Assembly (NCBI GenBank): GCA_964454005.1 | Contig: CAYVQE010000005.1 | Coordinates: forward strand, 4,404 to 68,403 | Origin: an uncultured Myxococcales bacterium | Lineage (GTDB): Bacteria > Myxococcota > B64-G9 | Reading direction: 5' to 3' | Length of the DNA: 64,000 nt | Shown: one piece after another, positions 1 through 15,592 of the stretch | Layout: every line of letters starts with the position of its first letter | Numbering within the stretch: position 1 is the stretch's first letter | The notes under the pieces: generated by a model | Database searches by the model: none | Told to the model about the DNA's origin: nothing | Seen by the model: the letters and a program-made list of their open reading frames with translations, nothing else | Made by a program: the position numbers and the translations under genes

Positions 1-840
1 GAGCCAGACGACCCGGGCCTCGGGCTGGGTCGCGAGCAGCGCGTCCAGGTGCGTCAGGTGCTCGGGCGCCTTGAGCGCCAGGCGACGGGCCGGGCGCTGG
101 GCGAGCAGCAGCCGGAGCTGATCCGCATAGTGGGCGTAGGTGTCGGTGTAGTCCTGATCGCGCGACCAATCCAGATAGCCGCGCACGTCTCCCAACAGTA
201 CGTAGAACTGTTCGCACATAAAGGTGCGCGCCAGCAGGAAGATACACTCCTCGGTGCTGTCGTGCCGGGAGGGGTGTATCTTGTCGAGCTGGTCCACCCA
301 CCAGCGCATCGCGGCGATGGTGTTCTTGGCCGCCAGCTTGCGCATCCGCGGGTAGCGCTTGAAGTGAATCGGATCCAGGACCGGATAGTACATCTCCCAC
401 AACTGCGGCGCGCGGGCGTCGGGGTCCTGGGCCAGCAAGCGATGCAGCAGCGTGGTCCCGGTGCGGGGCAGCCCGATCACGACCAGGGTGTCCGGCAGGC
501 GGGTGGCGCCGATCTCCGGATTGGCCCGCAGGGCCTGATCCACCTGGATGCGGGTGGCCAACTGCATCAGCAGCATGTTGCGGGCACCGCGGCGCCCAAG
601 GGTGTTGAGGCGGGCGTCGGTCTCTAGCGAATCCACCAGGACGGACAGCGGTTCCCGGATGTCGGCCGGGAGGGGTGCGTTGTGGGTCTTGGCCAGGCGG
701 CAGGCCATGGACCAGAGGCTGTCGACTTCGAGATCGGCCCGCTTGTCGAACAGCGTCAGCAGGCCCTTGGCGAAACGAAGGCGGATCGGGCGCCTCTTCT
801 CGAACATGGTCGGCTCGTGGTCGGATGGACCGGCGGACAT
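1..840 (-). CDS. Sulfotransferase family protein (3' end runs off the window)
   Basis: This gene is absent from the ORF track because it is open to the window edge. The reverse frame from the ATG (complement of 838-840) is stop-free where I translated it (positions 31-60 and 421-480) and by eye across the rest, and it contains VIGLPRTGTTLLHRLLAQDP. That sequence matches the 5'-phosphosulfate-binding loop of bacterial sulfotransferases. Listed + ORF 49..627 is its antisense shadow. Confidence 0.7.
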   Translation of the reverse strand, partial: MSAGPSDHEPTMFEKRRPIRLRFAKGLLTLFDKRADLEVDSLWSMACRLAKTHNAPLPADIREPLSVLVDSLETDARLNTLGRRGARNMLLMQLATRIQVDQALRANPEIGATRLPDTLVVIGLPRTGTTLLHRLLAQDPDARAPQLWEMYYPVLDPIHFKRYPRMRKLAAKNTIAAMRWWVDQLDKIHPSRHDSTEECIFLLARTFMCEQFYVLLGDVRGYLDWSRDQDYTDTYAHYADQLRLLLAQRPARRLALKAPEHLTHLDALLATQPEARVVWL

Positions 841-1032
841 CTGCGGTCTGGCTCCCTTCTCTCGATCCAGGGCGTCGTTTTCAGGGCCATTGTAGTCCGC
901 TCTGACTCGGGCAGGCAAGGCCGCTGCGCGCGACCAGAATTTCCCACCACCGATGGGGCTGTCCTGAATCCGAATGCCTCGCTCCTCCCGTTCCGTGTTT
1001 TTTGCGGTGTGAGGTGATAGACTCGCGATAAG

Positions 1033-1743
1033 ATGGCCTTGAGCAACGAAAGCCAGCCTGCCAGCGCGGTCGAGACCATCCCCCGATCCGCATTGTTTCC
1101 GATCGAACCGGCTGCGCTAGCAAGCGCCATGGGCGGGCAGGGCGCTTCATTGCCGCCGCGCCTGCGGCGGCGGGCCGAGCAAGCGGCGGCCGTGGTGGAG
1201 CGGGCCAGCCGGCCGCGGCTCTGTCGGCGCCGCCTGTCTCTGAGCCGTGGGCAGGCGGGTTTTCTCCTGGACGGGCGAGGACCGTTCAAAAGCGCCAACC
1301 TGGACCGCATGCTGGCGGTCTGCAGCCACGTCTACGCCTTCCTGGTCACTCTGGGCCCCGAGTTGGATCGCCGCCTGCAGGCTGCCCAGGGGGCCGGAAT
1401 GGCCGAGGCCTACGTGCTGGACGCGATCGCCGCGCAGCTCACCGAGGCCGCCGCGGCTTACGCCGAAGAGCGGATCCGGCAACAGCTGGCCCCGGGCGAG
1501 GAGGCGACCATGCGCATCAGTCCGGGATACTGCGATTGGCCTGTCAGCCAGCAGGCCCTGTTGTTCTCGCTGCTCGATGGAGCGACCGCCGGGGTCTCGT
1601 TGACCGAGGGGGGCATGATGCAGCCGCGCAAGAGCATCTCCAGCATCCTGGGGGTCGGGCCCCGCGAGCGCGTGCTGCCGGTGCGCAATGCCTGCCTGTT
1701 CTGTGGGCAGCGGGATTGCCCCTACCGGAGGGAGGCGAGATGA
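1033..1743 (+). CDS. Stand-alone cobalamin-dependent methionine synthase activation-domain-like protein
   Basis: The C-terminal half (MRISPGYCDWPVSQQALLFSLLD...SLTEGGMMQPRKSISSILGVG) resembles the MetH reactivation domain, which occurs as separate proteins in corrinoid methyltransferase operons. Its stop overlaps the next start (ATGA at 1740-1743). Confidence 0.6.
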   Translation: MALSNESQPASAVETIPRSALFPIEPAALASAMGGQGASLPPRLRRRAEQAAAVVERASRPRLCRRRLSLSRGQAGFLLDGRGPFKSANLDRMLAVCSHVYAFLVTLGPELDRRLQAAQGAGMAEAYVLDAIAAQLTEAAAAYAEERIRQQLAPGEEATMRISPGYCDWPVSQQALLFSLLDGATAGVSLTEGGMMQPRKSISSILGVGPRERVLPVRNACLFCGQRDCPYRREAR

Positions 1744-2768
1744 AGGCACTACAGATTGCGGAACGCGGCAAGCCCTTGGCGCAGAGGCAAGTCGACCAGC
1801 CGGGTCCCGGTCCGGGCGAGGTCTTGGTCAAGGTGGCCGCCGCCGGCATCTGCCGCTCCGACGTGCACTACCGCTCGGGTACCGCCCCGACCGGACCGCT
1901 GCCGCTGACGCCCGGCCACGAGATCGCCGGGGTGATCGAAGCCGTCGGCCCACAGGTCGCCGAGCGCAGGGTGGGCCAACGGGTCTGTCTGCACTACCTG
2001 GTTACCTGCGGCCATTGCCACTACTGCGCGCTGGGCAGCGAGCAGTTCTGCACCAGCGGCGCCATGCTCGGCAAACACATCGACGGCGGCTACGCCGAGT
2101 ACATCGCGGTGCCGGAGAAGAACGCGGTGCCGCTGCCGGACTCGATCTCGTTCGAACAGGGCGCCATCATCGGCTGCTCGGCGGTGACCTGCCTGCACGC
2201 CATCCGCAAGAGCCGCCTGGCGGCTGGTGAGACCGTGGCCGTGTTCGGCGTGGGCGGGCTGGGGCTTTCGGCCATCCAGCTGGCCCGGGCTTTCGGCGCC
2301 CTGGACGTCTACGCGATCGACATCGCGGCGGAGAAGCTGAAGATGGCGGCTGCGCTGGGAGCGTTGCCGATCGACGCTGGCGCCGGCGATCCGGTCGCCG
2401 CCATCATGCAGCATACCGGCGGTCGCGGCGTGGACGTGGCCCTGGAGGTGATCGGACTGCCGGCGACGCTGCAGCAGGCGGTCAAGAGCCTGTCCATTTT
2501 CGGCCGGGCCATGGTCGTCGGCATCACCGACCAGCCGATGCAAATTCTGCCCTACTCGGACCTGCTGATGAAAGAAGCCGAGCTGATGGGCGCCGCCGAT
2601 CATCTCCTGACCGAGATGCCCTTGTTGCTCGAGATGGTCCGCCGCGGTGTGCTGCAGCTCGGCGACGTGGTGGCCAAACGCCTGCCGCTCGAGGCCGATG
2701 CCGTCAACGCCGAGCTCGATGCCATCGAGCGTTTCGACAGCGAAGGCCGGGCGGTGATCATCCCCTGA
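1740..2768 (+). CDS. Zinc-dependent alcohol dehydrogenase family oxidoreductase
   Basis: ATG 1740 lies inside listed ORF 1536..2768. Motifs seen are the GHEIAGVIEAVG zinc-ADH signature, the structural-zinc Cys cluster CGHCHYCALGSEQFC and the Rossmann motif GVGGLG. Confidence 0.85.
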   Translation: MKALQIAERGKPLAQRQVDQPGPGPGEVLVKVAAAGICRSDVHYRSGTAPTGPLPLTPGHEIAGVIEAVGPQVAERRVGQRVCLHYLVTCGHCHYCALGSEQFCTSGAMLGKHIDGGYAEYIAVPEKNAVPLPDSISFEQGAIIGCSAVTCLHAIRKSRLAAGETVAVFGVGGLGLSAIQLARAFGALDVYAIDIAAEKLKMAAALGALPIDAGAGDPVAAIMQHTGGRGVDVALEVIGLPATLQQAVKSLSIFGRAMVVGITDQPMQILPYSDLLMKEAELMGAADHLLTEMPLLLEMVRRGVLQLGDVVAKRLPLEADAVNAELDAIERFDSEGRAVIIP

Positions 2769-2800
2769 GCGCATGGCCGAGCGAGGAGCGAGGACGCACC

Positions 2801-3601
2801 ATGATCCTGATCGGAGAGCTGCTCAACACCTCACGCCGGTCGATCGCCGGGGCGGTCGAGCGGCGCGACACCGAGGCCATCGCCGCCGTCGCCCGGCGCC
2901 AGGCCGAAGCCGGTGCCGACTACATCGACGTCAACGCCGGGACCTTCGCCGCCCGCGAGAGCGAGTGTCTGTGCTGGTTGGTCGAGACGGTGCAGGCGGC
3001 GGTCGATCGACCGCTGTGCATCGACAGCCCCAGCCCCGATGCCATGCGCGCGGCGCTCGAACGCCACCGCGGCACAGCGCTGGTCAACTCGATTTCAATG
3101 GAGCCGCAGCGCTGGCGCGGTATGCTCGAGGTGGTGGCGGAGTGGCCCTGCCGGGTGATCGCCCTGTGCATGACCTCGGCCGCCATGCCGCAAGGGGCCG
3201 GTGAGCGGGTCGACGCCGGCACGGCCATCGTCGATGAGCTCGAGCGCGCCGGGGTGGCGCGGGAGCGGATCCTGCTCGATCCGCTATTGCAGCCGGTGTC
3301 GATCGACGTGCGCCAGGGAAGGGGGTTTCTCAAAGCCCTGCGCCGACTGACCGCCGCGCTGCCCGAGGTCGAGACCGTCTGCGGCCTGTCGAACGTGTCC
3401 TTCGGCCTGCCGCGGCGCTCGCTGGTCAATCGGACCTTTCTGTCACTGGCCCTGCAGGCCGGCCTGGGCGCCGCAATCTGTGACGCGACCGACCGGCGGC
3501 TGCTGGCCGCGCTGCGGGCGGCCGAGATGCTGCTGGGCCGGGACGAGTACTGCGAAGCCTTCATCGACGCCCACCAGTCCGGTGCGCTCGACGAGGATTG
3601 A
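2801..3601 (+). CDS. Methyltetrahydrofolate:corrinoid methyltransferase (pterin-binding domain protein)
   Basis: The pterin-binding TIM-barrel motifs ADYIDVNAG, LCIDS, LVNSIS and GLSNVSFGLP match the MetH/AcsE type. A GAGGAG ribosome-binding site (RBS) precedes the ATG. Confidence 0.8.
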   Translation: MILIGELLNTSRRSIAGAVERRDTEAIAAVARRQAEAGADYIDVNAGTFAARESECLCWLVETVQAAVDRPLCIDSPSPDAMRAALERHRGTALVNSISMEPQRWRGMLEVVAEWPCRVIALCMTSAAMPQGAGERVDAGTAIVDELERAGVARERILLDPLLQPVSIDVRQGRGFLKALRRLTAALPEVETVCGLSNVSFGLPRRSLVNRTFLSLALQAGLGAAICDATDRRLLAALRAAEMLLGRDEYCEAFIDAHQSGALDED

Positions 3602-3645
3602 CCCGAACAGCCCCGAGCACGGATCGGAGAACGGAGCGAGTGACG

Positions 3646-4299
3646 ATGGCGCCCGAAGCAGATCAGCAGAGACTGGAATCCCTCAACGCTGCCGTCATCG
3701 GGGCTGAGGCCGACGAGGCCCAGGCGCTGACCCGCCAGGCCCTGGAGGCCGGCATGCCCGCCCAGCGCATTATCGACGACGGGCTGATCGCGGCGCTGGA
3801 CGAGGTGGGTGAGCGCTATGCCAAGGGGCTGCTGTTCGTGCCCCAGATGCTGCGTTCGGCCAACACCATGCGCAAATGCGTGGATCTGCTCAAGCCGCAC
3901 CTAGGCGGCCAGGAGTTCAAGCCCAAGGGCAAGATCGTGATCGGCACGGTCAAAGGTGACCTGCACGACATCGGCAAGAACCTGGTGGCCATGATGCTGG
4001 AAGGCGCCGGCTTCCATGTCGCCGACCTGGGGGTCGACGTGGCCCCGGAGCAGTTCGTCCAGGCGCTCAAGGTCGAGGGCGCCGACATCCTGGCCATGTC
4101 GGCCTTGCTGTCGACGACCATGCTGGCCATGCCCGAGACCATCGCGGCGCTGCGGGCCGACGAGGTGGGGGCGCGGGTCAAGGTGTTGGTCGGCGGGGCC
4201 CCGGTGACTGAGGCCTACGCCGAGGAGATCGGAGCCGATGGCTATGGTCCAGATGCGGCCTCGGCGGCCGGGCTGGCCAAGAAGCTGATCGGCGATTGA
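3646..4299 (+). CDS. Corrinoid (B12-binding) methyl-carrier protein
   Basis: It has a B12-binding helical cap plus a Rossmann domain carrying DxHxxG (GDLHDIGKN), SxL (SALLSTT) and GG (VGGAP). ATG 3646 is preferred over TTG 3598 of the listed ORF. Confidence 0.9.
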   Translation: MAPEADQQRLESLNAAVIGAEADEAQALTRQALEAGMPAQRIIDDGLIAALDEVGERYAKGLLFVPQMLRSANTMRKCVDLLKPHLGGQEFKPKGKIVIGTVKGDLHDIGKNLVAMMLEGAGFHVADLGVDVAPEQFVQALKVEGADILAMSALLSTTMLAMPETIAALRADEVGARVKVLVGGAPVTEAYAEEIGADGYGPDAASAAGLAKKLIGD

Positions 4300-4326
4300 A
4301 GCACGACACGGCGGAAGGGCGAGCGG

Positions 4327-5742
4327 ATGGTTTTTCTTTCCAGTGCGGACATCGACGCCATCGACTACAGCGCGCGCGACCTGCTGTGGCGGGTAGGGGT
4401 GCGGATCGACGATCCTGCGACCTTGGATGCGCTGGAGCGGGACGGGGCGGCAGTCGACCGGGAGACCGGCCGGTCCCGCCTGACCCGGTCGTGGCTGGAC
4501 GACCGACTGGGCAAGGCCCCGGAGCGTTTCGTACTGCACGGTCGCGATCGGACACACGATCTACAGCTCGGCCAGGGCCGGGTGCACTTCGGCAACGGCG
4601 GCCGGGTGTTCCGGGTGCGTGACATCGACAGCGGCGAGTTCCGCCCCACCGGCATGCGCGACCTGGCGGCCATCGCCAGCCTGGTCGAGCATTTGGAGCA
4701 GATCGACTTCTTCATCATCCCCTGCCAGGCTGAAGACCTGGCGGCCGAGCAATACCACGCCAACGAGTTCTGGCTGGCCTGCAACCACACCGCCAAGCAC
4801 GTGATGGGCGGCTGCGGCGATCTGCGCGGTGTCGAGCAGATATGGCGACTGGGCGGCTTGTTGGCCGGCTCTGCGGAAGCCTTCGCCGCGGCGCCCTTCC
4901 TGTCGGTGATCACCAACACCGTCAGCCCGCTGATCTTCAACGCCGATGTGCTGCGCATCATGCGCTTCTGCTGCCAGAACGGCCTGCCGCTGACCTGTGC
5001 CCCGGCTCCGATCGCCGGGGCCACCGCCCCGGCCACATTGGCCGGAGCCCTGACGCAGCAGCACGCCGAATCGCTGGCCGCGGTGGCCATCGCCCAGGTC
5101 TTCCAGCCGGGCGCCCGCATCCTGTACGGCGCCGTGCTGTCGAGCATGGACCTGCGGCACATGGATTTCTGCCTGGGTGCGGCCGAGATGGCCATCATGA
5201 ACGCGGCCGCGGTGCAGCTGGCCAAACACAGCCGCCTGCCGATCTACGCCAGCGCCGGGGTGACCGACGCCAAGACTCCGGACGTGCAGGCCGGCATGGA
5301 AAAGGCCCTGTCGCAGCTGTTGGTGGCCCAGGCCGGCGGCGACGCCATCCACCTGGCGGCCGGAATGCTGGATTCCGGCAACAGCGTGGCCTACGAGCAG
5401 TACCTGATCGACGACGAGCTGATCGGCATGGTGCGGCGGTGTTTGGCCGGCGTGCGGGTCGACGAGCAGACGCTGGCCCAGGAGGTGATCGCCCGGGTCG
5501 GTCCGGGTGGCAACTACGTCACCGAGGACCACACGGTGGATCACATGTTCGATGAGTTCTTCTTCCCCCGGCTGGCGGTGCGCAGCAACTTCGACGTCTG
5601 GAACACGGGCGGCCGGCAGGGGATGGGAGACCGGGCCCGGCAGGTGGCCAGCGAGTTGCTCGAGCAGCACGCGGCGACGCTGCTGGCGGCCGAGCGACGC
5701 GCCGCGGTGGAGGCGGCTTTTCCGGGAATCGTCACCCTGTGA
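4327..5742 (+). CDS. MttB-superfamily substrate:corrinoid methyltransferase (non-pyrrolysine type)
   Basis: The 471-aa length and overall pattern fit the trimethylamine methyltransferase family, including the C-terminal VGPGGNYVTEDHT motif. The frame is uninterrupted, with no in-frame TAG. Confidence 0.8.
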   Translation: MVFLSSADIDAIDYSARDLLWRVGVRIDDPATLDALERDGAAVDRETGRSRLTRSWLDDRLGKAPERFVLHGRDRTHDLQLGQGRVHFGNGGRVFRVRDIDSGEFRPTGMRDLAAIASLVEHLEQIDFFIIPCQAEDLAAEQYHANEFWLACNHTAKHVMGGCGDLRGVEQIWRLGGLLAGSAEAFAAAPFLSVITNTVSPLIFNADVLRIMRFCCQNGLPLTCAPAPIAGATAPATLAGALTQQHAESLAAVAIAQVFQPGARILYGAVLSSMDLRHMDFCLGAAEMAIMNAAAVQLAKHSRLPIYASAGVTDAKTPDVQAGMEKALSQLLVAQAGGDAIHLAAGMLDSGNSVAYEQYLIDDELIGMVRRCLAGVRVDEQTLAQEVIARVGPGGNYVTEDHTVDHMFDEFFFPRLAVRSNFDVWNTGGRQGMGDRARQVASELLEQHAATLLAAERRAAVEAAFPGIVTL

Positions 5743-5767
5743 CGGCCCGGCGAGGGGTGCGCGAGCC

Positions 5768-6379
5768 ATGCCGGTCGAGCCCGAGCAACCGGAGTGCCGG
5801 CGGCTGATCGCCTGCGGGGTGTTCGTCCCGGCCCTGGAGAACCTGGGGCTCGACCGGCGCTGGCCCGGGCTGGAGCTGAAAGTGATGCCGGCCAGCCTGC
5901 ACATCCAGCCGACCCGCCTCTACGAGATGCTGGCCCAGGAATTGGCGCGCAGCGACTGCCCGCGGCCCCGGACCGGCCTGCTCTATGGCAGCTGCTTCCC
6001 CGGCATCGATGACTTCTGCCGCAAGCAGGGTTTGCGGCGGGTCAGCGGAGCCCACTGCTACGAGATGCTGCTCGGGCCACGGCGCTTTACCCGGCTGATG
6101 GACGAGACCGCCGGGACCTTTTTCGCCGAACGGGTGTTGCTGCAGAACTTCGAGCAGCACTGCGTCGAACCGTTGGAGCTCGACGATGCCGAGGTGCGCG
6201 CGGCCACCTTCGCCCACTACCGGCGCCTGATCTACATCCGCCAGCCGGACGACCCCGACCTCGGCCCCCGGGCCGCTGCGGTCGCTGATTTTCTGGGCTT
6301 GAGCCTCGGAGTGCTGGATGCGGATTACACCTACTTCGAGCACCTGGTCGACGACCTGGTGCGGGGAGGTGGAGGCTGA
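5768..6379 (+). CDS. DUF1638 domain protein
   Basis: ATG 5768 lies inside listed ORF 5507..6379. The pattern LIACGVF..LENL...LH..P..L...LLYGSC...HCYEMLLG is typical of DUF1638 proteins, which accompany corrinoid methyltransferase genes. Confidence 0.65.
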   Translation: MPVEPEQPECRRLIACGVFVPALENLGLDRRWPGLELKVMPASLHIQPTRLYEMLAQELARSDCPRPRTGLLYGSCFPGIDDFCRKQGLRRVSGAHCYEMLLGPRRFTRLMDETAGTFFAERVLLQNFEQHCVEPLELDDAEVRAATFAHYRRLIYIRQPDDPDLGPRAAAVADFLGLSLGVLDADYTYFEHLVDDLVRGGGG

Positions 6380-8316
6380 TGGCCCGACCCGAACGACCGA
6401 CTGCATTGGGGCTGCCGCGCTATGCGCCCGGGCCGCCGGCCGCCCGGCGGCCGCGCGATCGAACCGTGCTGGTCAATGTGCTGCCGGACGACATCTGGCT
6501 CGAGGCCCGGCGCGGGGACAACCTGCTCGACGTTTTGAAGAAGGGTGATGTGGACATCGATGCCGAATGCGGCGGCTTGGGCCAGTGCGGCAAGTGCAAG
6601 GTACGCATTCTGAGCTCCATCGACCTGCCGCCGGAGCAGTCGCGCGAGCACCTGAGCCGAAAGGAGATCGGCCAGGGCATCCGGCTGGCTTGCCACACCG
6701 TGCTGCAGGACGATCTGATCGTGTGGACCGGCGACCGCGAGCCCGAGTCGGAGTACGTCCAGATCCTGCAGACCGGGGCCCGGCCGCTGTTCCAGCTCGA
6801 GCCGCTGGTCGATCGCAAGCTGATCAACCTGCGGGTCGACTCGGCCGGCGGCGAACTGTCCTACATGGAACAGGTGCGCCTGGCCATGGGGCCGGTCGGC
6901 CGCCGGCTCGAGCCCTCGCTGTGGTGCCTGCGGTCGATCGTCGAGCGCATGCAGCAGGCGGAGTTTCGCGGCGCAGCGGTCTACCACGCGGATCGCTTGA
7001 TCGCCTGGCAGGCCTGGGAGGATCTGGAGCGCTACTACGGGCTGACTCTGGACCTGGGCACCAGCACGTTGGTGGGCAAGCTGGTCAACCTGCTCGACGG
7101 CACCGTGGTGGCCGCCATCTCGCGGCTGAACGGCCAGCTCCAGTACGGCGCGGACGTGATCAGCAGGCTGAAGTACATCAAGGAGAATTCCGACGGCCTG
7201 GAGCGGCTGCACACCATCATGCTGCGCGACATCAACCGCATCGTCCAGCGCCTGCTGGAGGTCGAGCATATCGACGCCGGGGATGTCTACGCAGCCGTGG
7301 TCGCCGGCAACACCACCATGCAGCACATCTTTCTGCGGGTCGATCCGACCAGCATCGCCGAGGTGCCCTTCGTGCCGGTGGTCAAGGAGGGGGTGATCGC
7401 CAGGGCGTCCGAGCTGGATCTGGGGGTGCACCCGGAGGCGCCGTGCCACGTGGTGCCGTCGCGCAGCGGCTACATCGGCGGCGACCTGATCGCCGTCATC
7501 CTGGCCTCTGGCGCAGCCGAGCAGAACGACGAGTTGGTGCTGGGGCTCGATCTGGGCACCAACGGTGAAATTTTTCTGGGCAACGCCGATCGCATCCTGA
7601 CCTGTTCGGCCGCCGCCGGGCCGGCCTTCGAGGGCGCCAACATCTCCCACGGGATGATCGCCCGCGGCGGCGCCATCGAGGCGGTGCTGAGCAGCGAGCA
7701 CAAGAGCACCTTCGTCTACCGCATCGTCGGCAACATCGAACCGCGCGGCCTGTGCGGCAGCGGCCTGGTGGATCTGGTCGCTTTGCTGCTGCACTGCGGT
7801 ATCATCGACCCCGAAGGCCTGATCGGCCATGTCGGCGACGAACGGCTGGCCGACCTCGACGCCCGGGTGGTCGAGCGCGCAGGCGCCCACGCCTTCATGG
7901 TGGCCCCGCCGGAAGAGGCCCACGGCGGCCGGGCCATCTTCTTGACCCAGCGCGACGTGCGCGAGCTGCAGCTGGCCAAGGCGGCCATCGCCGCCGGGGT
8001 GGAGTCGCTGCTGGAGGAGCTGGGCGTCGGCCCCGGCGACATCGACAAGGTCCTGCTGACCGGGGCCTTCGGCAACTACATCAACGCCCACAGCGCGCTG
8101 CGCATCGGGCTGCTGCCGGCGTTCGACCCGGGGGTCATCACCACCCTGGGCAACGCGGCCAGCACCGGGGCCAACATGATGCTGCTGTCCAAGATGCACT
8201 GGCGGCGGGCTGAGGAGCTGAGCGAGCGGATCGAGTACATCGCGCTCAGCGCGCGTCCGACCTTCATGCAGCGCTTCGTCGAACAGATGGACTTTCCGGA
8301 GGACAACCTGTGGTGA
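6379..8316 (+). CDS. Reductive activator of corrinoid protein (RACo/RamA-like; 2Fe-2S ferredoxin + ASKHA ATPase)
   Basis: The N-terminus has a plant-type ferredoxin motif (CGGLGQCGKCKV...ACHT). A large ASKHA-like body follows (LDLGTSTLVG, LDLGTNGEIF, AGPAFEG). The ATG overlaps the upstream stop (TGATG). Confidence 0.8.
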   Translation: MARPERPTALGLPRYAPGPPAARRPRDRTVLVNVLPDDIWLEARRGDNLLDVLKKGDVDIDAECGGLGQCGKCKVRILSSIDLPPEQSREHLSRKEIGQGIRLACHTVLQDDLIVWTGDREPESEYVQILQTGARPLFQLEPLVDRKLINLRVDSAGGELSYMEQVRLAMGPVGRRLEPSLWCLRSIVERMQQAEFRGAAVYHADRLIAWQAWEDLERYYGLTLDLGTSTLVGKLVNLLDGTVVAAISRLNGQLQYGADVISRLKYIKENSDGLERLHTIMLRDINRIVQRLLEVEHIDAGDVYAAVVAGNTTMQHIFLRVDPTSIAEVPFVPVVKEGVIARASELDLGVHPEAPCHVVPSRSGYIGGDLIAVILASGAAEQNDELVLGLDLGTNGEIFLGNADRILTCSAAAGPAFEGANISHGMIARGGAIEAVLSSEHKSTFVYRIVGNIEPRGLCGSGLVDLVALLLHCGIIDPEGLIGHVGDERLADLDARVVERAGAHAFMVAPPEEAHGGRAIFLTQRDVRELQLAKAAIAAGVESLLEELGVGPGDIDKVLLTGAFGNYINAHSALRIGLLPAFDPGVITTLGNAASTGANMMLLSKMHWRRAEELSERIEYIALSARPTFMQRFVEQMDFPEDNLW

Positions 8317-9941
8317 GCCGAGGACGGGACTGGGACGCCACCGTCGACCTGGTGGTGGTGGGTCTCGGCGCCGCCGGTACCTGCGCCGCCATCGAGGCGG
8401 CTGCGGCCGGGGCGCAGGTGTTGGCGGTGGATCGCTTCGACGGCGGCGGTGCGACCCGCCGCTCGGGCGGCGTCATCTATGCTGGGGGCGGCACCCGCTT
8501 GCAGCGCCGTCACGGCTTCGAAGACGACGTGCAGCGGATGCTGACCTACATCGAGGCCGAAGCCGGCGGCGTGGTCGACCGGGTGGTGCTGCGGGCCTTT
8601 TGCGAACGCAGCTGCGAGAACATCGATTGGCTAGAACGGCACGGGGTCGAGTTCGGCGAGGCATTCTATCCCGGAAAGGCCACCGAGCCGCCGGCCGGCG
8701 TGGGCCTGTACTACTCGGGCAACGAGTGGCAGCTCGAGCGCGACCGGCCGCCGCCGCGGGGACACGTGCCCGACGGGGGCGGACGCAACGGTCGGGTACT
8801 CTACGAGGCACTCAGCCGGGCCGCGACCGCGGCCGGGGTACGGATCCAGCGCTGGACGCGGGCGGTCGAGCTGGTGACCGATGAGAGCGGCGCTGTGGTC
8901 GGCGCCGTGCTCGAGGCCCAGCGGCCAAATCCGTTGCTGCGTGCAGCGCAGCGCGGTTTGTTGGCGGCAGCCGGCCTGCAGCGACGCCTGGGCCCGGCGC
9001 TGGCGCGGCTGGAGCGAAGCGGCGGGCGTCGCCAGCGGGTGCGCGCGCGCGGTGGGGTGGTGCTGGCCAGCGGCGGCTTCGTGTACTCGGCCGGGCGCAT
9101 GCGCCGGCGGGCGCCGGCCTTTGCCGGCTGCATGCCCCTGGGCACCCCGGGGGACGACGGCGCGGCCCTGCGGTTGGGCGCGGCGGTGGGCGCAGCCAAC
9201 GGCGAGCTGGACGCCTGCGCCGCGCTGCGTTTCATCAGCCCGCCCGAAGCATTCAGCCACGGGCTGTTGGTCGACTCCAGCGGCCGGCGTTTCTGCGACG
9301 AGAGCCGCTACGGCGCCAGCCTGGGCCGGGCCATCGCCGGGCGGCCCGGCGGTCGGGCCTGGCTGATCATCGACGCCGGGTTGCGGCGCCGGGTGCTGGA
9401 CGAGTTGGCCGCCGCCGCCAAGCCCTGGCGCCAATCGCCGACGGCCCTGCTCAGCGGCCGTAGCAACGCCCTGCTGTTCCTGCACCTGACCGGCCGCACC
9501 CAGCTGCATCTCAACCGGGTGCGGGCGCCGCATCCGGAGCGGCTGGCTCGCAAGCTGGGCCTGACGGCTGCGGCGCTGGCGCGAACCATCGAGCAGCACA
9601 ACCGGGCGCTGGCCGCCGGCCGGCCCGATGAGCGGGGCAAGCCCGATCGCTTCCGGGCGCCGATCACCGAGCCGCCCTTCGAGGCGTTGGCCTGCCACCT
9701 GGACCATCCGCTGCTGTTGACCCCGTGCTTCACGCTGGGCGGCCTGCGCACCGATCCGTTGACCGGGCGGGTGTTGGGCCGCCGCGATGGCCGGCCCATC
9801 GCCGGGCTCTACGGCGCTGGCCGGGCCGCGGTGGGGGTCTGCTCGCGCTCCTACGTCAGCGGCCTGTCGCTGGCCGACTGCGTGTTCAGCGGCCGCAACG
9901 CCGGCCGCCACGCAGCCGAGCGGGCCGCGTCCGGTCGCTGA
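8310..9941 (+). CDS. FAD-binding dehydrogenase (fumarate reductase/KstD-like flavoprotein family)
   Basis: The N-terminal dinucleotide fold reads DLVVVGLGAAGTCAAIEAAAAGAQVLAVDR. A GTG start overlaps the RACo stop. The C-terminus has GLYGAGR. Confidence 0.75.
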   Translation: MVSRGRDWDATVDLVVVGLGAAGTCAAIEAAAAGAQVLAVDRFDGGGATRRSGGVIYAGGGTRLQRRHGFEDDVQRMLTYIEAEAGGVVDRVVLRAFCERSCENIDWLERHGVEFGEAFYPGKATEPPAGVGLYYSGNEWQLERDRPPPRGHVPDGGGRNGRVLYEALSRAATAAGVRIQRWTRAVELVTDESGAVVGAVLEAQRPNPLLRAAQRGLLAAAGLQRRLGPALARLERSGGRRQRVRARGGVVLASGGFVYSAGRMRRRAPAFAGCMPLGTPGDDGAALRLGAAVGAANGELDACAALRFISPPEAFSHGLLVDSSGRRFCDESRYGASLGRAIAGRPGGRAWLIIDAGLRRRVLDELAAAAKPWRQSPTALLSGRSNALLFLHLTGRTQLHLNRVRAPHPERLARKLGLTAAALARTIEQHNRALAAGRPDERGKPDRFRAPITEPPFEALACHLDHPLLLTPCFTLGGLRTDPLTGRVLGRRDGRPIAGLYGAGRAAVGVCSRSYVSGLSLADCVFSGRNAGRHAAERAASGR

Positions 9942-10040
9942 CCTTCGTTCTTGCCGCCCGAAGAGCGGGGGGCCACGAGCCAATTGGCCGGCGCCGGCGT
10001 GGTCGACATGCAAAAAATTCCGGTGCAACTCCGGGCCAGA

Positions 10041-10074
10041 GGCCGCTCGGGGCAAAGCGGCCGATTTCTTTTTT
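10041..10074 (+). terminator. Intrinsic terminator of the corrinoid operon
   Basis: A GGCCGCT-cggggcaa-AGCGGCC hairpin is followed by gaTTTCTTTTTT, 100 nt after the stop at 9941. Confidence 0.6.
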
Positions 10075-10220
10075 CCGCCCGGGGACCTGTAGTATACCTG
10101 GATGGCGCTGATCGGGGGGAAGACCAGAAATTCCCGCCCGCCGGGCGGGGATGAAAACCGAGCTGGAAGCTCCTGTGGCGGATCGTCCGTCGAGGAGCTT
10201 CGGGAGAGAGAGGACGGTAC

Positions 10221-11768
10221 ATGGCAGGCACGGACTTCGGTTATGCGCTCTCCAACCCGCTCGCCAAGCTGCTCGACAAGCCGCGCCAGGACTTCACCCG
10301 GCGCGACCTGATGCAGCTGATCGCGCAGCAGGGCATCGAGCGTTTCGGCTTCCACTACACCGCGCTCGACGGCAAGCTCAAGGAACTCAAGATCCCGATC
10401 ACCTCGCGCTCCGGCGCCGAGCTGATCCTGGCAGAGGGGGAGCGGGTCGACGGCTCGTCGCTGTTCAAGGGCATGGTCGACGCCGCCCTGTCTGACCTGT
10501 ACGTGGTCCCGCTCTACCGCAGCGCCTTTTTGAACCCCTTCGAGGGCAAGAGCCTGGACTTCATCTGCCGCTACGTCACCAAGGACGGCGAGCTGGCACC
10601 CTTCGCCCCGGACACCATCCTGATCAACGCCAGCCGGCGTTTCCGCGAGCGCACCGGGCTCGATCTCTACACCCTGGGCGAGCTCGAGTTCTTCCTCATC
10701 GGCGAGGACCCCAAGGGCATCTTCACCGCCCAGAAGCAGCACGGCTACCACGCCGCCTCGCCCTTCATCAAGAGCGGCCCCATCCTCAACGAGATGATCC
10801 ACCACATCACCCAGATCAGCGGCGACGTGAAGTACGCCCACAGCGAGGTGGGCTACATCGACGCCATCCGTAGCAACCTGCCCGAGATCGAGGGCAAGTG
10901 CGGCGAGCAGCTCGAGATCGAGTACCTGCCGCGGCCCATCGAGGAGGCGGCCGACAACCTGGTGCTGGGCCGCTGGTTGATCCGCAACATCGCCTACCGC
11001 AACGGCTGCGTGGCCACCTTCGCGCCCAAGATCGAAGAGGGCGTGGCCGGCAATGGCATGCACGTGCACATCGCCGCCATGCGCGACGGCCAGAACGCGA
11101 TGACCGACGAATCGGGCGAGCTGTCGGCCGCCGCCCGCAAGCTGATCGGCGGGTTGTGCCGCTACGCCGGCTCGCTGACCGCCTTCGGCAACACGGTCTC
11201 GTCGGCCTACCTGCGGCTGGTGCCCAACCAGGAGGCGCCGACGCGCGTTTGCTGGAGCGATCTGAACCGCAGCGCCATGATCCGGGTGCCGCTGGGCTGG
11301 GCGCGGGTATCCAACCTGGCCCGGCTGGTCAACCCCCAGGAGACCGAGCAGGTGGAGCGGACCGGCGAACGCCAGACGGTGGAGCTGCGCAGCCCGGACG
11401 GCAGCGCGGTGGTGCATTTGCTGCTGGCCGGCATCGCCATGGCCGCCGAGTGGGGCTCGGCCGAGACCGAGGCCGATGCGCTGACCGAAAAGCTCTACGT
11501 CCAGGGCAACATCTTCGAGGATCAGGCCTTGTTGGATCGGCTGCCCAAGCTGCCCGGCTCCTGCGAGGCCTCCGGCTGGAACCTGGACGAGCAGCGCGAA
11601 CTCTATCAGCGCGGCGGGATCTTTCCGCCCAGCGTCATCGACTGGATGGTCGGCCGGCTGACCGGCCAGGCCGACGCCGAGATGAACCGGCGCCTGGCCG
11701 ACATGCCGGCCGAGGATAGACTGCACGAGACGCGGCGCATCATGCACCGCTGCCTGCACGAGCAGTGA
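10221..11768 (+). CDS. Glutamine synthetase family protein (GS catalytic domain)
   Basis: GS-type motifs seen are GELEFFL, HSEVG...QLEIEY, KIEEGVAGNGMHVH, YLRLVPNQEAP and NRSAMIRVP. Confidence 0.8.
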   Translation: MAGTDFGYALSNPLAKLLDKPRQDFTRRDLMQLIAQQGIERFGFHYTALDGKLKELKIPITSRSGAELILAEGERVDGSSLFKGMVDAALSDLYVVPLYRSAFLNPFEGKSLDFICRYVTKDGELAPFAPDTILINASRRFRERTGLDLYTLGELEFFLIGEDPKGIFTAQKQHGYHAASPFIKSGPILNEMIHHITQISGDVKYAHSEVGYIDAIRSNLPEIEGKCGEQLEIEYLPRPIEEAADNLVLGRWLIRNIAYRNGCVATFAPKIEEGVAGNGMHVHIAAMRDGQNAMTDESGELSAAARKLIGGLCRYAGSLTAFGNTVSSAYLRLVPNQEAPTRVCWSDLNRSAMIRVPLGWARVSNLARLVNPQETEQVERTGERQTVELRSPDGSAVVHLLLAGIAMAAEWGSAETEADALTEKLYVQGNIFEDQALLDRLPKLPGSCEASGWNLDEQRELYQRGGIFPPSVIDWMVGRLTGQADAEMNRRLADMPAEDRLHETRRIMHRCLHEQ

Positions 11769-11786
11769 GCCGGCTCGCCCCCGTCT

Positions 11787-12650
11787 TCAGCGCACCAGCA
11801 GGATGGCGCCGTCGATCAGTTCTTCCAGGCAGGGAGGGCGGGGGGCGTTGAGCAGCGGCAGGTCGGCCGGCAGACACCACAGCGCGCCGGGCAACTCGGC
11901 GGCCAGCGCCCGGATGCGACCGATGGCGGTGATGCGCGGCGTGGCACCCAGATCCTCGGCCCGGCCGCGCACATCCAGCCGGTGGCGCGCCGCGCGCGAC
12001 TCGGCGGCCGCCAGCAGCTGCCGGGCGCGAGCCGCATCGGCCCCCAGCGCCTGGATCACCAGCGGCCGCTGAATGCGCTCGGCCAGCTCGGCACAGAACC
12101 CGAGGGCGCGCTCGGACAAGGGGGTATCGGCCAGGGTGACCACCACCGGGCCCAGCGGCTCGACTCCAGGCCGCAGCAGCAGCACCGGCCGGCCGGCCCG
12201 GGCGGCGGCTTCCAGCGCCGCGGCCGCCACGCATTGCGGTCGGGCCAGCGGCCGGGCAGCGGTCAGCGCCACCAGCAGATCGATGTCGCCGGCGGCCGCC
12301 GCCACCGCGGCCCGCTTGCGCCCGCGCACCACCCGGAAGCGCCAGCTCACCCGCGCCCGGCCGACCGTCTGCGCCAGGGCCCGCTGGGCGTCGGCGGCCA
12401 GCGCCCGCAGCGTGCGGCGCAGGGCGCGGGCCTCGATCGGGGCGGCGGTGGCGGTGCGCAGGTTGATCTCGCGCAAAAAGGAGAGTTCGGCGGTGCGCAG
12501 CAGATCGTCGTCCTCGATGAACAGGGCGTCGACCTCGGCCCGCAGGTGCGCGGCCAGATCGGCGACCAGCTGCAGCTGCACCGGGTCACAGCGGGCCGCA
12601 TCCAGCGCCAGCAGGATGCGCTGGCCGGCGGTCGCCACAGCCGCGCTCAT
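11787..12650 (-). CDS. Hypothetical protein (possibly tandem USP-like fold)
   Basis: This 287-aa ORF has an ATG that overlaps the Lon-like stop (ATGA at 12647-12650). The RILLALD and PVLLL strand-like repeats only weakly suggest a universal-stress-protein-like fold. Confidence 0.5.
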   Translation of the reverse strand: MSAAVATAGQRILLALDAARCDPVQLQLVADLAAHLRAEVDALFIEDDDLLRTAELSFLREINLRTATAAPIEARALRRTLRALAADAQRALAQTVGRARVSWRFRVVRGRKRAAVAAAAGDIDLLVALTAARPLARPQCVAAAALEAAARAGRPVLLLRPGVEPLGPVVVTLADTPLSERALGFCAELAERIQRPLVIQALGADAARARQLLAAAESRAARHRLDVRGRAEDLGATPRITAIGRIRALAAELPGALWCLPADLPLLNAPRPPCLEELIDGAILLVR

Positions 12651-15082
12651 GGGCTGGGCTCCGCTTCGCGGGCCGCGGCGGCGTAACGGCGGGCGCGGTC
12701 GGCCATCTGGTCGAGGCGCCGCTGGACGCGGGCGTTGATGCTGTCGGCCGGCCAGCCGCCGCCGGCCTGGCGGTCGCCGGCCGCCACCCCGGTGAGCAGC
12801 TCGATGCCCTGGTCGATGGTCCCGACCGGGATGATCGAGAACCGGCCGGCCGCCACCGCCTGGCGCACGTCGCGGCGCAGCATCAGGTGAATGGTGTTGC
12901 TGGCCGGGATCAGAACCCCCTGATCGCCGGACAGACCGGCGGCGCGGCAGACGTCGAAGAAGCCCTCGATCTTCTCGTTCACCCCGCCGATGGCCTGTAT
13001 CCGCCCGTGCTGATCGACCGAGCCGGTAACCGCCAGGCCCTGGCGCAGCGGGGTGTCGGCCAGGGCCGACAGCAGCGCGTAGAGCTCGGCCGACGATGCG
13101 CTGTCGCCGTCGACCCCGCCGTAGGACTGCTCGAACACCAGGCTGGCCGACAGGGCGAATGGCCGGTCGCCGGCGAAGCGCGCGCCCAGAAAGCCCGCCA
13201 GGATCAGCACCCCCTTGGAATGCAGCGGGCCGCCGAGGGCCACCTCGCGCTCGATGTCGGTCACCTCGCCCTTGCCCAGGCGCACCCGGGCGGTGATCCG
13301 ATTGGGCTGGCCGAAGGCGAAGCCGCCGAGCTGCAGCACCGATAGGCCGTTGATCTGCCCGATGCGTTCGCCGCTGGTGGCGATGCGGACCGTGCCGCGG
13401 GCGATCTGCTCCTGGGAGCGCTCGCGCACGCGATCGGCACGGTGGATCTGGGCGGCCACAGCGCGCTCGACGTCGTCATCGGTGACCGTGTCGCGCTCGG
13501 CCTGGGCGGCCCAGTGGTCGGCCTCGCACAGCAGGTCGACCAGGTCGCCCATGCGGATCGAGAGCCGCTCGGCATCGGCCACCAGCCGCGAGGAGCGTTC
13601 GATGATCCGCGCCACCGCCTCCGGGGTGAACGGCAGCAGCTGGTGGCGCCGGGCCAGGGTGGCCACCAGGCGGGCGTAGAGCTGGTCGTTCTCGGGCTTG
13701 CGCGGCATGCGATCGTCGAAGTCGACCTGAACCTTGAACAGATCGGGAAAGTCGGGGTCGAGCTGCGACAGCAGATAGTAGATCATCCGCTCGCCGACCA
13801 GCACCACCTTGGCCTCGAGCGGGATGGCCTCTGGCTCCAGGGTGATGGTGCTGATCAGGCTCAGCTGCTGGCCGACCGACTCGATGCGGACCTGTCCGGC
13901 GCGCAGGGTGCGCTTGAGGTTGTCCCACGCCAACGGCTGGGTCAGCAGCTTGTTGGCGTCCAGGATCAGGGTGCCGCCGTTGGCCCGGTGCAGGGCGCCG
14001 GCCCGGATAAGCCGATGGTCGGTCACCAGGGCGCCGAACTCGGTGCGGTGCTCGACCCGCCCGAGCAGGTTCTGCAGGCTGGGGTGATCCTCGTAGATCA
14101 CCGGGGCGCCCTCGGTCTCGGCGTTGTCGACCAGCAGGTTGACCCGGTAGCGATCGAGCGGATCCGACTTCTGCATTCCGGGCGGCAGCGCGACCCCCGG
14201 TGGCGCGGCCGGTTGCTGCTTCTGCTCCTTGCTGGGCAGAAAGTCCTCGGCCCGGTCGACCACGTCGGCGGCCAGGGCTTCGAGGTAGGTGGTGACCGGT
14301 TCCAGATCGGCGTAGGCTTGCTTCAGTTCGGCCAGCAGCTTGTCGACGGCGAAGGAGACCACCTCGCGGTTCAACTCGCGTACCTTCTCGCGCTGCTCCT
14401 TCTCCCAGGCCGGCAGCCGGCCGGCGATGTCGCGCACTTCCTTCTCGAGTTCTTCGATGTCGCGCTTGATGCGTTCCTGCTCTTCCTCCGGCAGCTTGCG
14501 GAACTCCTCGGGCGGCAGCACCTCGCCGTCGCGTACCGGGGCCAGGGCCATGCCGTTGGGGGTGTTGACCGGCGCGATGTCCTTTTCCTTGGCCCGCTGC
14601 TGGATGTCCTCGAAGTCCTGCTGGTGCTTGTCCTTGAACTCCTGCTCCAGCGCCTGGCGCCGGTTGCGGTAGTCGTCGGACTCGAACGCGGCCGGTATGG
14701 CCGCGCCCAGCTCGTCGATCAGCTCTTCCATCTGGTGCTGGAAGGCGGCGCCGCGGCCGGCCGGCAGCTGCAGCGCCCGGGGCCGGTTGGCGTCCTTGAA
14801 GTCGCGCACGTAGCACCAGTCGTCCGGTCGCGGCCGGTCGGCCGAGACCCGCTCCAGGTACTGGCGCACCACGCTGTGCTTGCCGGTTCCGGGCGGGCCG
14901 AGCACGAACAGGTTGTAGCCCTGGTGGCGGATGCCGATGCCGAAGGCGATCGCATCGACGGCGCGTTGCTGGCCGATAACCTGCTCCAGATCCTCCAGCT
15001 CCGCGGTCGAGTCGAAGTCGAACTGCGCCGGATCGCAGGCGCGGTAGAGGACATCGGCGGGTAGGGGAGCGGGTCGGGCCAT
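12647..15082 (-). CDS. Lon-related AAA+ ATP-dependent protease
   Basis: The start MARPAPLP (ATG complement of 15080-15082) lies inside listed ORF 12647..15589. Motifs seen are Walker A GPPGTGKH and a C-terminal S16 Lon protease domain with GVDGDSASSAE (Ser) and GGVNEKIEGFF (Lys). Confidence 0.85.
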   Translation of the reverse strand: MARPAPLPADVLYRACDPAQFDFDSTAELEDLEQVIGQQRAVDAIAFGIGIRHQGYNLFVLGPPGTGKHSVVRQYLERVSADRPRPDDWCYVRDFKDANRPRALQLPAGRGAAFQHQMEELIDELGAAIPAAFESDDYRNRRQALEQEFKDKHQQDFEDIQQRAKEKDIAPVNTPNGMALAPVRDGEVLPPEEFRKLPEEEQERIKRDIEELEKEVRDIAGRLPAWEKEQREKVRELNREVVSFAVDKLLAELKQAYADLEPVTTYLEALAADVVDRAEDFLPSKEQKQQPAAPPGVALPPGMQKSDPLDRYRVNLLVDNAETEGAPVIYEDHPSLQNLLGRVEHRTEFGALVTDHRLIRAGALHRANGGTLILDANKLLTQPLAWDNLKRTLRAGQVRIESVGQQLSLISTITLEPEAIPLEAKVVLVGERMIYYLLSQLDPDFPDLFKVQVDFDDRMPRKPENDQLYARLVATLARRHQLLPFTPEAVARIIERSSRLVADAERLSIRMGDLVDLLCEADHWAAQAERDTVTDDDVERAVAAQIHRADRVRERSQEQIARGTVRIATSGERIGQINGLSVLQLGGFAFGQPNRITARVRLGKGEVTDIEREVALGGPLHSKGVLILAGFLGARFAGDRPFALSASLVFEQSYGGVDGDSASSAELYALLSALADTPLRQGLAVTGSVDQHGRIQAIGGVNEKIEGFFDVCRAAGLSGDQGVLIPASNTIHLMLRRDVRQAVAAGRFSIIPVGTIDQGIELLTGVAAGDRQAGGGWPADSINARVQRRLDQMADRARRYAAAAREAEPSP

Positions 15083-15120
15083 GCGATCGCCTCCAGCGGA
15101 CGGTTTTCGACGCCGCCCGA

Positions 15121-15399
15121 TCAGCGTTTGATGGTGTCGGGTCCCCGGCCGGCCGTCTTGCGGTAAACACCGGGTTTGTCCTTGCGGTATTGGGTGAAGC
15201 CCTTGGCGGACAGGTTCTGCTCCGACAGCACATCCCGCGGCCGGGTCGAGACATTGGGCGCCGAGATCAGCCGCCGGCAGCTGGCGCCGCATTCCGGGCA
15301 GCGCTCGAGCGGGGCGTCGTCGAAGGACTGCAACAGCTCGAATCCGCCGCGACAGTGGGCACAGCCTCGTTCCAGCGTCTCGTATTCGTAGAGCGGCAT
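15121..15399 (-). CDS. FmdB-family zinc-ribbon putative regulatory protein
   Basis: The sequence MPLYEYETLERGCAHC...CPECG shows the characteristic YEY start and two CxxC pairs. Confidence 0.8.
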   Translation of the reverse strand: MPLYEYETLERGCAHCRGGFELLQSFDDAPLERCPECGASCRRLISAPNVSTRPRDVLSEQNLSAKGFTQYRKDKPGVYRKTAGRGPDTIKR

Positions 15400-15592
15400 G
15401 ATGTCCTTCCAGCCGCCGTCGGCCCGGGCGGCTGAGTCCGAATGTAGGCCAGCCCCGGCGGTGTGTAAACCCGGCAGGACACGAGCGGGGCGCTGTGGAC
15501 AGCCGCAGCGGCCGGCGCCTCGACCTGCCGCCGCTGCCCGAAATCCTGCCGCCCTGAAAAAGCGTTGTTCGACAGCAGCTTGGGCCCAAAAG

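Follow-up and report, generated by a model that had tools for sequence, protein, structure and literature searches.

The window analyzed here, a stretch of 64,000 nucleotides (nt) from the genome of an uncultured Myxococcales bacterium (assembly GCA_964454005.1, contig CAYVQE010000005.1), carries between positions 1033 and 9941 eight genes of the + strand, g1 to g8, which together probably specify a three-component corrinoid methyl relay with a repair set of its own. Neighboring genes are at most 44 nt apart or have overlapping stops and starts. The first gene, g1 (1033-1743, +), codes for a stand-alone protein of 236 residues resembling the activation domain of MetH (Pfam Met_synt_B12), and shares an ATGA overlap with g2 (1740-2768, +), the gene for a Zn-dependent medium-chain alcohol dehydrogenase (ADH) of 342 residues (Pfam ADH_N and ADH_zinc_N). 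After 32 nt comes g3 (2801-3601, +), for an MtgA/AcsE-like methyl-corrinoid:tetrahydrofolate methyltransferase (MT2) of 266 residues (Pterin_bind, PRK07535), followed 44 nt further on by g4 (3646-4299, +), for a corrinoid protein of 217 residues when counted from the ATG at 3646 (B12-binding and B12-binding_2), and, after another 27 nt, by g5 (4327-5742, +), for a non-pyrrolysine substrate:corrinoid methyltransferase (MT1) of the MttB superfamily, 471 residues long (Pfam MTTB). A gap of 25 nt leads to g6 (5768-6379, +), for a DUF1638 protein of 203 residues (Pfam DUF1638), which overlaps by one base (TGATG) with g7 (6379-8316, +); g7 codes for a 645-residue ATP-dependent reductive activator of corrinoid proteins of the RACo/RamA type (Fer2, Raco_middle and RACo_C_ter) and overlaps by 4-7 nt with g8 (8310-9941, +), for an FAD-dependent oxidoreductase of 543 residues of the KstD/fumarate-reductase-flavoprotein type (FAD_binding_2, NF005511).

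A GGAG-like stretch lies upstream of seven of the eight starts, g1 being the exception, and these stretches, together with the points at which the domain matches begin, make 1740, 3646 and 5768 the likely starts of g2, g4 and g6; for g4, a TTG at 3598 is a possible alternative start further upstream. Downstream of g8, a terminator-like hairpin with a T-rich tail spans 10041-10072 (+), its stem of seven pairs, six of them G-C, occupying 10041-10062; the same scan also returned weaker terminator-like matches within genes (9 observed versus 3.1 expected in shuffled sequences). Upstream of 1033, ahead of g1, the + strand yielded no sigma-70-like promoter, and an Rfam search of positions 1-12000 at E up to 1 returned no riboswitch or other RNA before the operon; the search gave a sub-threshold match to PYLIS_3 within g5, and two meaningless matches to internal ribosome entry sites. 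The spacing of the genes and the terminator fit a single transcription unit. A preliminary description of this DNA, made from the sequence alone, had proposed eight coupled genes closed by an intrinsic terminator at 10041; all eight genes were located, their overlaps and short gaps can be read from the sequence, and the hairpin lies where the terminator had been placed. With a G+C content of 0.68-0.73, the operon does not differ from its surroundings.

Proteins of the relay and of corrinoid repair

Searches with profile hidden Markov models back the MttB, corrinoid, pterin-binding, RACo, DUF1638 and Met_synt_B12 assignments that had been proposed on inspection. The g3 protein scores 90.3 bits with Pfam Pterin_bind and 297.3 bits with NCBIfam PRK07535 (cut-off 259), and is 49-59% identical to the product of the gene in the same position of the related loci described below. 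The g4 protein matches B12-binding (100.4 bits) and B12-binding_2 (72.1 bits) and has the motif D105-x-H107-x2-G110; its best NCBIfam match, at 199.8 bits, is MtgC_2, the glycine-betaine corrinoid protein, for which the cut-off is 370. In g7, the N-terminal iron-sulfur, middle and ASKHA ATPase domains of the RACo/RamA family are all present (Fer2, 35.7 bits; Raco_middle, 173.4 bits; RACo_C_ter, 261.9 bits), with Cys64, Cys70, Cys73 and Cys105 in the ferredoxin domain. Since the NCBIfam model AcsV reaches 415 bits against a cut-off of 800 and the RamA model also falls under its cut-off, g7 is a member of the family but not an ortholog of AcsV or RamA. A single operon thus holds the parts of a three-component system, namely g5 as MT1, g4 as the corrinoid protein and g3 as MT2, together with g7 as the activase.

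The DUF1638 protein g6 (83.7 bits) is the sole copy detected in the host genome by tblastn, and a homologue follows the MttB gene in 71 of the 74 related loci with enough flanking sequence. Natural MttB-DUF1638 fusions occur in two relatives (P0033 and P0095, of 689 and 682 residues) and argue for a direct physical link between both proteins. The g1 protein scores 40.2 bits with Met_synt_B12 (PF02965; cut-off 25), a match that covers only profile positions 122-251 of 273, and it is the sole PF02965 match in the host genome. Its closest sequence in the PDB is 1J6R, a stand-alone protein of Thermotoga maritima, at 37 bits. The sequence R161-I-S-P-G-Y166 conforms to RxxxGY, which we take to be the S-adenosylmethionine motif of the MetH activation domain, and g1 is predicted from its sequence to be a member of that domain family. 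Within the g1 subfamily, Cys97, Cys167 and a C221-x2-C224-x4-C229 tail are invariant in six of six aligned members, four of them from MttB loci, and the position of Cys167 is a Gly in the aligned 1J6R; these conserved cysteines may form a metal or iron-sulfur site.

The MttB-family methyltransferase

The MttB superfamily is very large and, to our knowledge, only six substrate specificities are known in it. The g5 protein is a member, with 326.8 bits to Pfam MTTB (PF06253; cut-off 25) over residues 3-462. By Foldseek, its AlphaFold model (pTM 0.83, mean pLDDT 75.4) aligns with the structures 7XCL, 2QNE, 9YCE and 4YYC at TM-scores of 0.82-0.83, so that the predicted fold, the TIM barrel of the solved members, agrees with the MttB assignment through MttB itself, MtgB and the Sinorhizobium meliloti homologue. 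In sequence, g5 scores 209 bits against the pyrrolysine-containing MttB (Pyl-MttB) of Methanosarcina barkeri, 194 bits against MtgB of Desulfitobacterium hafniense and 151 bits against the S. meliloti homologue (4YYC).

The reading frame of g5 is uninterrupted, and Val312 stands at the position of the pyrrolysine of 7XCL. With no in-frame amber codon, and with 378.6 bits to TIGR02369 against a cut-off of 525, g5 was rejected as a pyrrolysine MttB. The sub-threshold PYLIS_3 match (5260-5359, +; E 0.0017; 31.9 bits against a gathering score of 38) has codon 312 of g5 as its exact starting point; because the amber codon is absent, it most likely reflects homology of the coding sequence and not a working insertion element.

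In MtgB, Y97 and F356 are reported to bind the quaternary nitrogen by cation-pi contacts, and R312 and H348 the carboxylate (PMC13080624). According to the same source, R312 is conserved in all MttB-type members with known function, and their substrates are all acidic quaternary amines. In a HMMER alignment of g5 to 9YCE, on which the contact residues were mapped by hand (the chain numbering being that of the paper minus 2, as checked by the identities at 95, 310, 346 and 354), Y97 corresponds to G92, R312 to Y307, H348 to L343, with H342 adjacent, and F356 to G351. None of the four contacts is kept, and g5 was rejected as an MtgB of the D. hafniense type. G92, Y307, H342 and L343 are invariant in an alignment of 21 sequences of the g5 clade. 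The Arg-to-Tyr difference was also tried as a diagnostic of the substrate, and dropped: Pyl-MttB has Tyr at the R312 site too, and Tyr or Trp is found there in every environmental MttB clade aligned, as well as in a paralog of the host itself (on contig C47) that lies beside an OpuAC-type transporter. Tyr at this site is therefore not diagnostic, and betaines are not excluded by this residue. The model has pLDDT below 50 in loops 85-93, 311-322 and 341-352, and as these loops carry the contact residues no reading of the pocket was made. To judge by its sequence, g5 belongs to no characterized specificity group.

Related loci and phylogeny

A search of 5.8 billion proteins with g5 returned its own protein and then only proteins of 53-60% identity among the 120 matches listed; those that are named come from Desulfobacterales, Desulfomonilaceae, Desulfoferrobacter suflitae and Chloroflexota, and two are MttB-DUF1638 fusions. 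Taking one genome per species, a scan for related loci gave 79. One, from a genome of the same genus also labeled 'uncultured Myxococcales bacterium', has a g5 that is 93% identical and all nine genes of the region in the same order. The other 78, with g5 52-58% identical, are from Desulfobacterota, Dehalococcoidia/Chloroflexota and Nitrospirota, plus one bin labeled Promethearchaeota. Their gene order matches g3-g4-g5-g6-g7 of the window: among loci whose flanks reach far enough, 54 of 55 have g3, 59 of 60 have g4 and 64 of 65 have g7, alongside the figure given above for g6. Only these five core families occur in at least 59 of the 79 loci, and no transporter is conserved around the related module. 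In the flanks, an asparagine-synthase-like gene is the most frequent (17 of 79 loci), ahead of a 2-oxoacid:ferredoxin oxidoreductase pair (7-8 loci) and of S-adenosylhomocysteine hydrolase (AhcY) and S-adenosylmethionine synthetase (MetK), with 4 loci each; L009, L056, L058 and L073 are examples of loci with such flanks. Genes resembling g1 stand beside MttB systems in 4 of the 78 loci (L016, L024, L042 and L070), and homologues of g2 and g8 in none of the 78; on these sequence comparisons g1, g2 and g8 are additions of this lineage to the core.

The related loci form a two-paralog MttB module, exemplified by Desulfoferrobacter suflitae DRH4 (L023), in which the g5 ortholog is joined by another MttB paralog of about 29% identity to g5; of the 71 loci with sufficient flank, 68 have it no more than 400 nt upstream, and the other three have it within about 2 kb. 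This second paralog is absent from the window, where g4 and g5 are 27 nt apart, and from locus L006, so that the window does not carry a two-paralog module. It shares with that module the g3-g7 order and identities of 52-58% in g5 and 40-61% in the other four core genes, and differs from it in the missing paralog and in the added g1, g2 and g8.

In a tree of 93 MttB sequences (quick search, LG+G4, SH-aLRT support only; environmental sequences plus the host's own paralog), g5 and its Myxococcales twin stand on a long stem (0.65) as sister to the 79 other orthologs, which group at a support of 98. As the tree program warned of long-branch joins and of unusual composition in both myxobacterial rows, we take from the tree only that the myxobacterial g5 pair appears not to be nested in any sampled clade; the other rows labeled 'Myxococcota' are records titled 'Deltaproteobacteria bacterium' and are not to be read as myxobacteria. 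The core g3-g7 would thus be a divergent sister of the two-paralog module, which is itself uncharacterized.

Among 301 sampled genomes of the phylum, the host included, g5 finds matches at E no higher than 1e-30 in six, and an ortholog is present in two, the host and one other of the same genus (G057); the remainder are paralogs of 28-39% identity. An operon common throughout the lineage would have spoken against the preliminary description, and that is not what the sample contains. Outside the phylum, this kind of operon is very common. The simplest reading is that a family of anaerobic Myxococcota bearing carbon monoxide dehydrogenase (CODH) and acetyl-CoA synthase (ACS) acquired the core through an old horizontal transfer whose donor is unsampled. 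In the literature covered, which leaves most subscription journals outside, we found no description of an MttB operon or of a CODH/ACS-bearing family in Myxococcota.

The host genome

The host assembly, in 321 contigs, is rated 100% complete with 5% contamination. A locus on contig C177 (L114, 1403-11118) carries genes for CODH, ACS, the large subunit of the corrinoid iron-sulfur protein, an AcsE-like protein and a DUF3786 protein, and a fragment of methylenetetrahydrofolate reductase (MTHFR) lies at the contig end. ACS is a trait of the host's family: of its 17 other genomes, 13 have a match (12 of them above the cut-off), whereas beyond the family the phylum sample yields one among 283. Formyltetrahydrofolate synthetase (FTHFS, 743 bits) and FolD are present, and MTHFR has five matches, counting the C177 fragment, though none on the operon's own contig. 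The one-carbon pathway of tetrahydrofolate, which the preliminary description had singled out to be looked for together with cobalamin biosynthesis or uptake, is thus there. As for cobalamin, CbiD and CobS were not found in the host genome. Of two divergent riboswitches for cobalamin on contig C33 (L113, 7486-12924), scoring 88.1 and 81.7 bits, one precedes an operon with a TonB-dependent receptor; the host probably imports its corrinoid. The host looks like a B12-scavenging anaerobe able to feed methyl-tetrahydrofolate into the Wood-Ljungdahl pathway.

Other corrinoid systems are encoded elsewhere in the genome. MetH (contig C79, 19663-22041, +; open frame of 883 residues) has homocysteine, pterin and B12 modules and no activation domain, and two further RACo paralogs, at 31% identity, lie on contigs C63 and C25. 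On contig C47 (L004, 1943-12503, -), two MttB-family genes are accompanied by an MtgA-like gene, a corrinoid protein, an ABC ATPase, an OpuAC-type binding protein and a DUF362/ferredoxin gene; neither RACo nor DUF1638 was found at this locus, whose long open frame at 6612-8810 is really two genes. The MttB of C47 scores 251 bits against MtgB and groups in the tree with Chloroflexota paralogs that adjoin g1-like genes. That score and the OpuAC/ABC transporter beside it make the C47 system a better candidate than g5 for the use of betaines.

Alcohol dehydrogenase and flavoprotein

The g2 protein scores 115.6 bits with ADH_N and 91.5 bits with ADH_zinc_N, all its NCBIfam matches being under their cut-offs; its best PDB match is 1RJW (187 bits), and a GxGxxG motif and the Cys cluster of the Zn ligands are present. 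The g8 protein scores 130.7 bits with FAD_binding_2 and 569.6 bits with NCBIfam NF005511 (cut-off 466), has GxGxxG at residues 18-23 and finds its best PDB match in 4AT0, a 3-ketosteroid delta4-(5alpha)-dehydrogenase (226 bits).

A survey of g8 homologues of 33-55% identity covered 25 metagenome loci and two genomes of the family, several of which have the same layout or are near-copies and thus are not independent. A gene of the 3beta-hydroxysteroid-dehydrogenase family adjoins the g8 homologue in 10 of the 27 loci (L101, L119-L121, L124, L125, L130, L133, L136 and L137), and a short-chain dehydrogenase is near it in 8. These neighbors suggest that the g8 family tends to act behind an NAD-dependent alcohol dehydrogenase, and the 3beta-hydroxysteroid-dehydrogenase genes are a lead to the function of the NF005511 family. 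As g2 is the only candidate partner in the window, and on that basis alone, g2 and g8 may be read as a pair that takes an alcohol to a ketone and then to an enone.

Neighboring genes

Upstream of the operon, on the opposite strand, is a sulfotransferase gene (1-918). Downstream, behind the terminator and 280 nt away, lies a gene for a divergent protein of 515 residues that resembles glutamine synthetase (GS; 10221-11768, +). It scores about 115 bits against true GS structures, and 178.5 bits with the GlnA model against a cut-off of 429; its product could be an amine-glutamate ligase. The gene is kept in the genome of the same genus, with no homologue in any of the 78 related loci. Further on, a gene at 12647-15589 (-) codes for a LonC/LonB-like AAA protease of 980 residues (AAA_32, LonC_helical and Lon_C domains).

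Discussion

What is observed is the identity of the genes, their tight packing in an operon, the motifs for cofactors and the pathways present in the host, and these lead us to read g1-g8 as a probable three-component corrinoid relay equipped with its own repair proteins. In such a relay, g5 would demethylate an N-methylated compound, most likely a quaternary ammonium one, and load the methyl group onto the Co(I) corrinoid of g4, from which g3 would pass it to tetrahydrofolate. Whenever the corrinoid lapses to Co(II), g7, with its [2Fe-2S] cluster and ASKHA ATPase, would reduce it together with g6 at the expense of ATP, and g1 probably offers a second route, a reductive remethylation dependent on S-adenosylmethionine. 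The resulting methyl-tetrahydrofolate would enter the Wood-Ljungdahl pathway of the host, either to be oxidized via MTHFR, FolD and FTHFS or to yield acetyl-CoA when CODH/ACS combines it with CO. Finally, g2 and g8 would, as the preliminary description had suggested, process the methyl donor or its demethylated product, g2 oxidizing a hydroxyl group to a carbonyl and g8 desaturating the bond next to it. We infer the direction of methyl flow, the class of the substrate and the roles of g1, g2, g6 and g8. For g6 and g7, there is precedent in that a RamA-like protein and a DUF1638 protein are both genetically required for the reactivation of B12 in Phaeobacter inhibens (PMC5764234), and are induced together with MtgBCD in Ruegeria pomeroyi (PMC12478193).

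Several points weigh against this reading, or against parts of it. All four of the contacts through which MtgB holds glycine betaine are missing from g5, including the Arg312 reported as conserved (PMC13080624), and this makes extrapolation from the characterized enzymes to g5 weaker than usual. A second MttB paralog is a constant part of the related module and is absent here, and g5 alone may not be a complete MT1. No gene for a transporter or binding protein was found in or beside the operon. As for g2 and g8, their conservation is seen only in one genome of the same genus, which at 91-93% identity says little, and homologues of g1-g7, the corrinoid genes and the ADH among them, were found beside g8 homologues in none of the 27 loci surveyed.

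The last of these points bears on whether the ADH and the flavoprotein belong to the pathway at all. They could be metabolic passengers, co-transcribed with the methyl-transfer genes and unrelated to the methyl donor, and we give this a serious chance, although one short of even. It would account for the absence of g2 and g8 from all the related loci, as well as for the surroundings of g8 homologues elsewhere. However, g2 overlaps the stop of g1 and g8 the stop of g7, so that both are translationally coupled to methyl-transfer genes, and the other genome of the genus has the same arrangement, weak as that argument is at such close identity.

A related question is what g1, g6 and g7 are for. 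The operon might be mainly a hub of corrinoid repair, in which these three proteins reactivate all the corrinoid enzymes of the cell, MetH and the MttB system of C47 included. The host genome lends this some color, with g1 as its only MetH-activation-like protein beside a MetH devoid of that domain, and with g6 as its only DUF1638 protein beside a C47 locus devoid of both DUF1638 and RACo. Against it, the two other RACo paralogs would also be available for such work, and the repair genes are co-transcribed with a complete set of MT1, corrinoid protein and MT2, as they are in the 78 related loci. We therefore regard the service of other corrinoid systems as an extra role and not the main one, and the hub as a doubtful account of the operon.

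Two proposals concern the substrate that the relay of g5, g4 and g3 would use. That it is a methylammonium compound without an acidic group (trimethylamine, tetramethylammonium, choline or dimethylethanolamine, for example) is rather unlikely in our view; in that case the ADH would act on the amino alcohol, and the GS-like protein perhaps on the resulting primary amine. Such a substrate would suit a site at which g5, like Pyl-MttB, has Tyr in place of the Arg that binds the carboxylate; Pyl-MttB is also the best sequence match of g5 among the solved structures; the lack of a conserved transporter around the related module would suit a permeant compound; and both a Zn-ADH within the operon and a divergent GS-like gene close behind it are at hand. 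But Tyr or Trp occupies that site in every environmental clade aligned, one of them beside a betaine-type transporter, and the GS-like gene is behind the terminator. Moreover, the characterized members without pyrrolysine are all described as using acidic quaternary amines (PMC13080624), and MthB is reported to use phosphocholine together with a kinase (PMC12155760), which is absent here. A plain glycine betaine:tetrahydrofolate system (MtgB, MtgC and MtgA with an activase), which is the commonest reading of non-pyrrolysine MttB operons, is less likely still: glycine betaine is the substrate of the first characterized member and of the aerobic system (PMC13080624; PMC12478193), MtgC_2 is the best match of g4, and the OpuAC-linked paralog of the host also lacks the Arg, so that the residue leaves betaines possible, but the MtgC_2 score is far under its cut-off, no MtgB contact is kept, and g5 is slightly closer to Pyl-MttB than to MtgB, to which the C47 paralog is the better match. 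The remaining weight lies with other betaine-like or hydroxylated N-methyl compounds.

The relay that we propose for g1-g8 is not a new kind of system; it is a well-known kind in a divergent and seldom encountered form, with three genes added. MtgB, MtgC and MtgA of D. hafniense (2QNE, 9YCE) work by the same three-component scheme and share the MT1 fold, g5 being about 25-26% identical to MtgB in the fold alignment. In Eubacterium limosum, MtpB, MtcB, MtyB and MthB, which act on proline betaine, carnitine, gamma-butyrobetaine and phosphocholine, respectively, are likewise non-pyrrolysine MttB proteins that feed methyl groups to tetrahydrofolate in a Wood-Ljungdahl host (PMC13080624; PMC12155760); compared by description only, they differ from g5 in the Arg312 reported as conserved (PMC13080624), and no MthK-like kinase is encoded in the window. 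The MttB/MttC/RamA system of M. barkeri (7XCL) contains the best-scoring solved relative of g5, with which it shares the Tyr at the Arg312 site, but in the window pyrrolysine is lacking and the acceptor would be folate and not coenzyme M; the S. meliloti homologue is the weakest of the solved relatives. With the aerobic MtgBCD(E) systems of R. pomeroyi and P. inhibens, the operon shares a list of parts that includes the RamA-like and DUF1638 repair pair (PMC12478193; PMC5764234), whereas the host of the window looks like an anaerobe, carries CODH/ACS and has its genes in one operon, those of the aerobes being often scattered. In placing such modules in methanogens, acetogens and some strict anaerobes, the preliminary description was therefore too narrow, as the aerobic MtgBCD/RamA/DUF1638 system had been published in 2025 (PMC12478193).

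A bolder proposal, which we consider improbable, is that the sister clade of g5, with Tyr for Arg and no conserved transporter, demethylates a non-acidic methylammonium compound without pyrrolysine, and that the myxobacterial operon joins to this an alcohol-to-ketone-to-enone pair. The outcome would be an undescribed anaerobic route of demethylation and oxidation that feeds the Wood-Ljungdahl pathway; its substrate would be both N-methylated and hydroxylated, for instance an amino alcohol or an alicyclic N-methyl alcohol.

Corrinoid-dependent demethylation of quaternary amines governs the turnover of osmolytes (betaines) in anoxic sediments and guts. The operon places a system of this sort in a CODH/ACS-bearing family of Myxococcota, a physiology not usually linked with myxobacteria. 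With three distinct corrinoid-repair proteins, an ADH and a ketosteroid-dehydrogenase-like flavoprotein co-transcribed with the relay, it also offers a concrete set of proteins for the roles of DUF1638 and of stand-alone MetH-activation-like proteins, and for the substrate of the clade.

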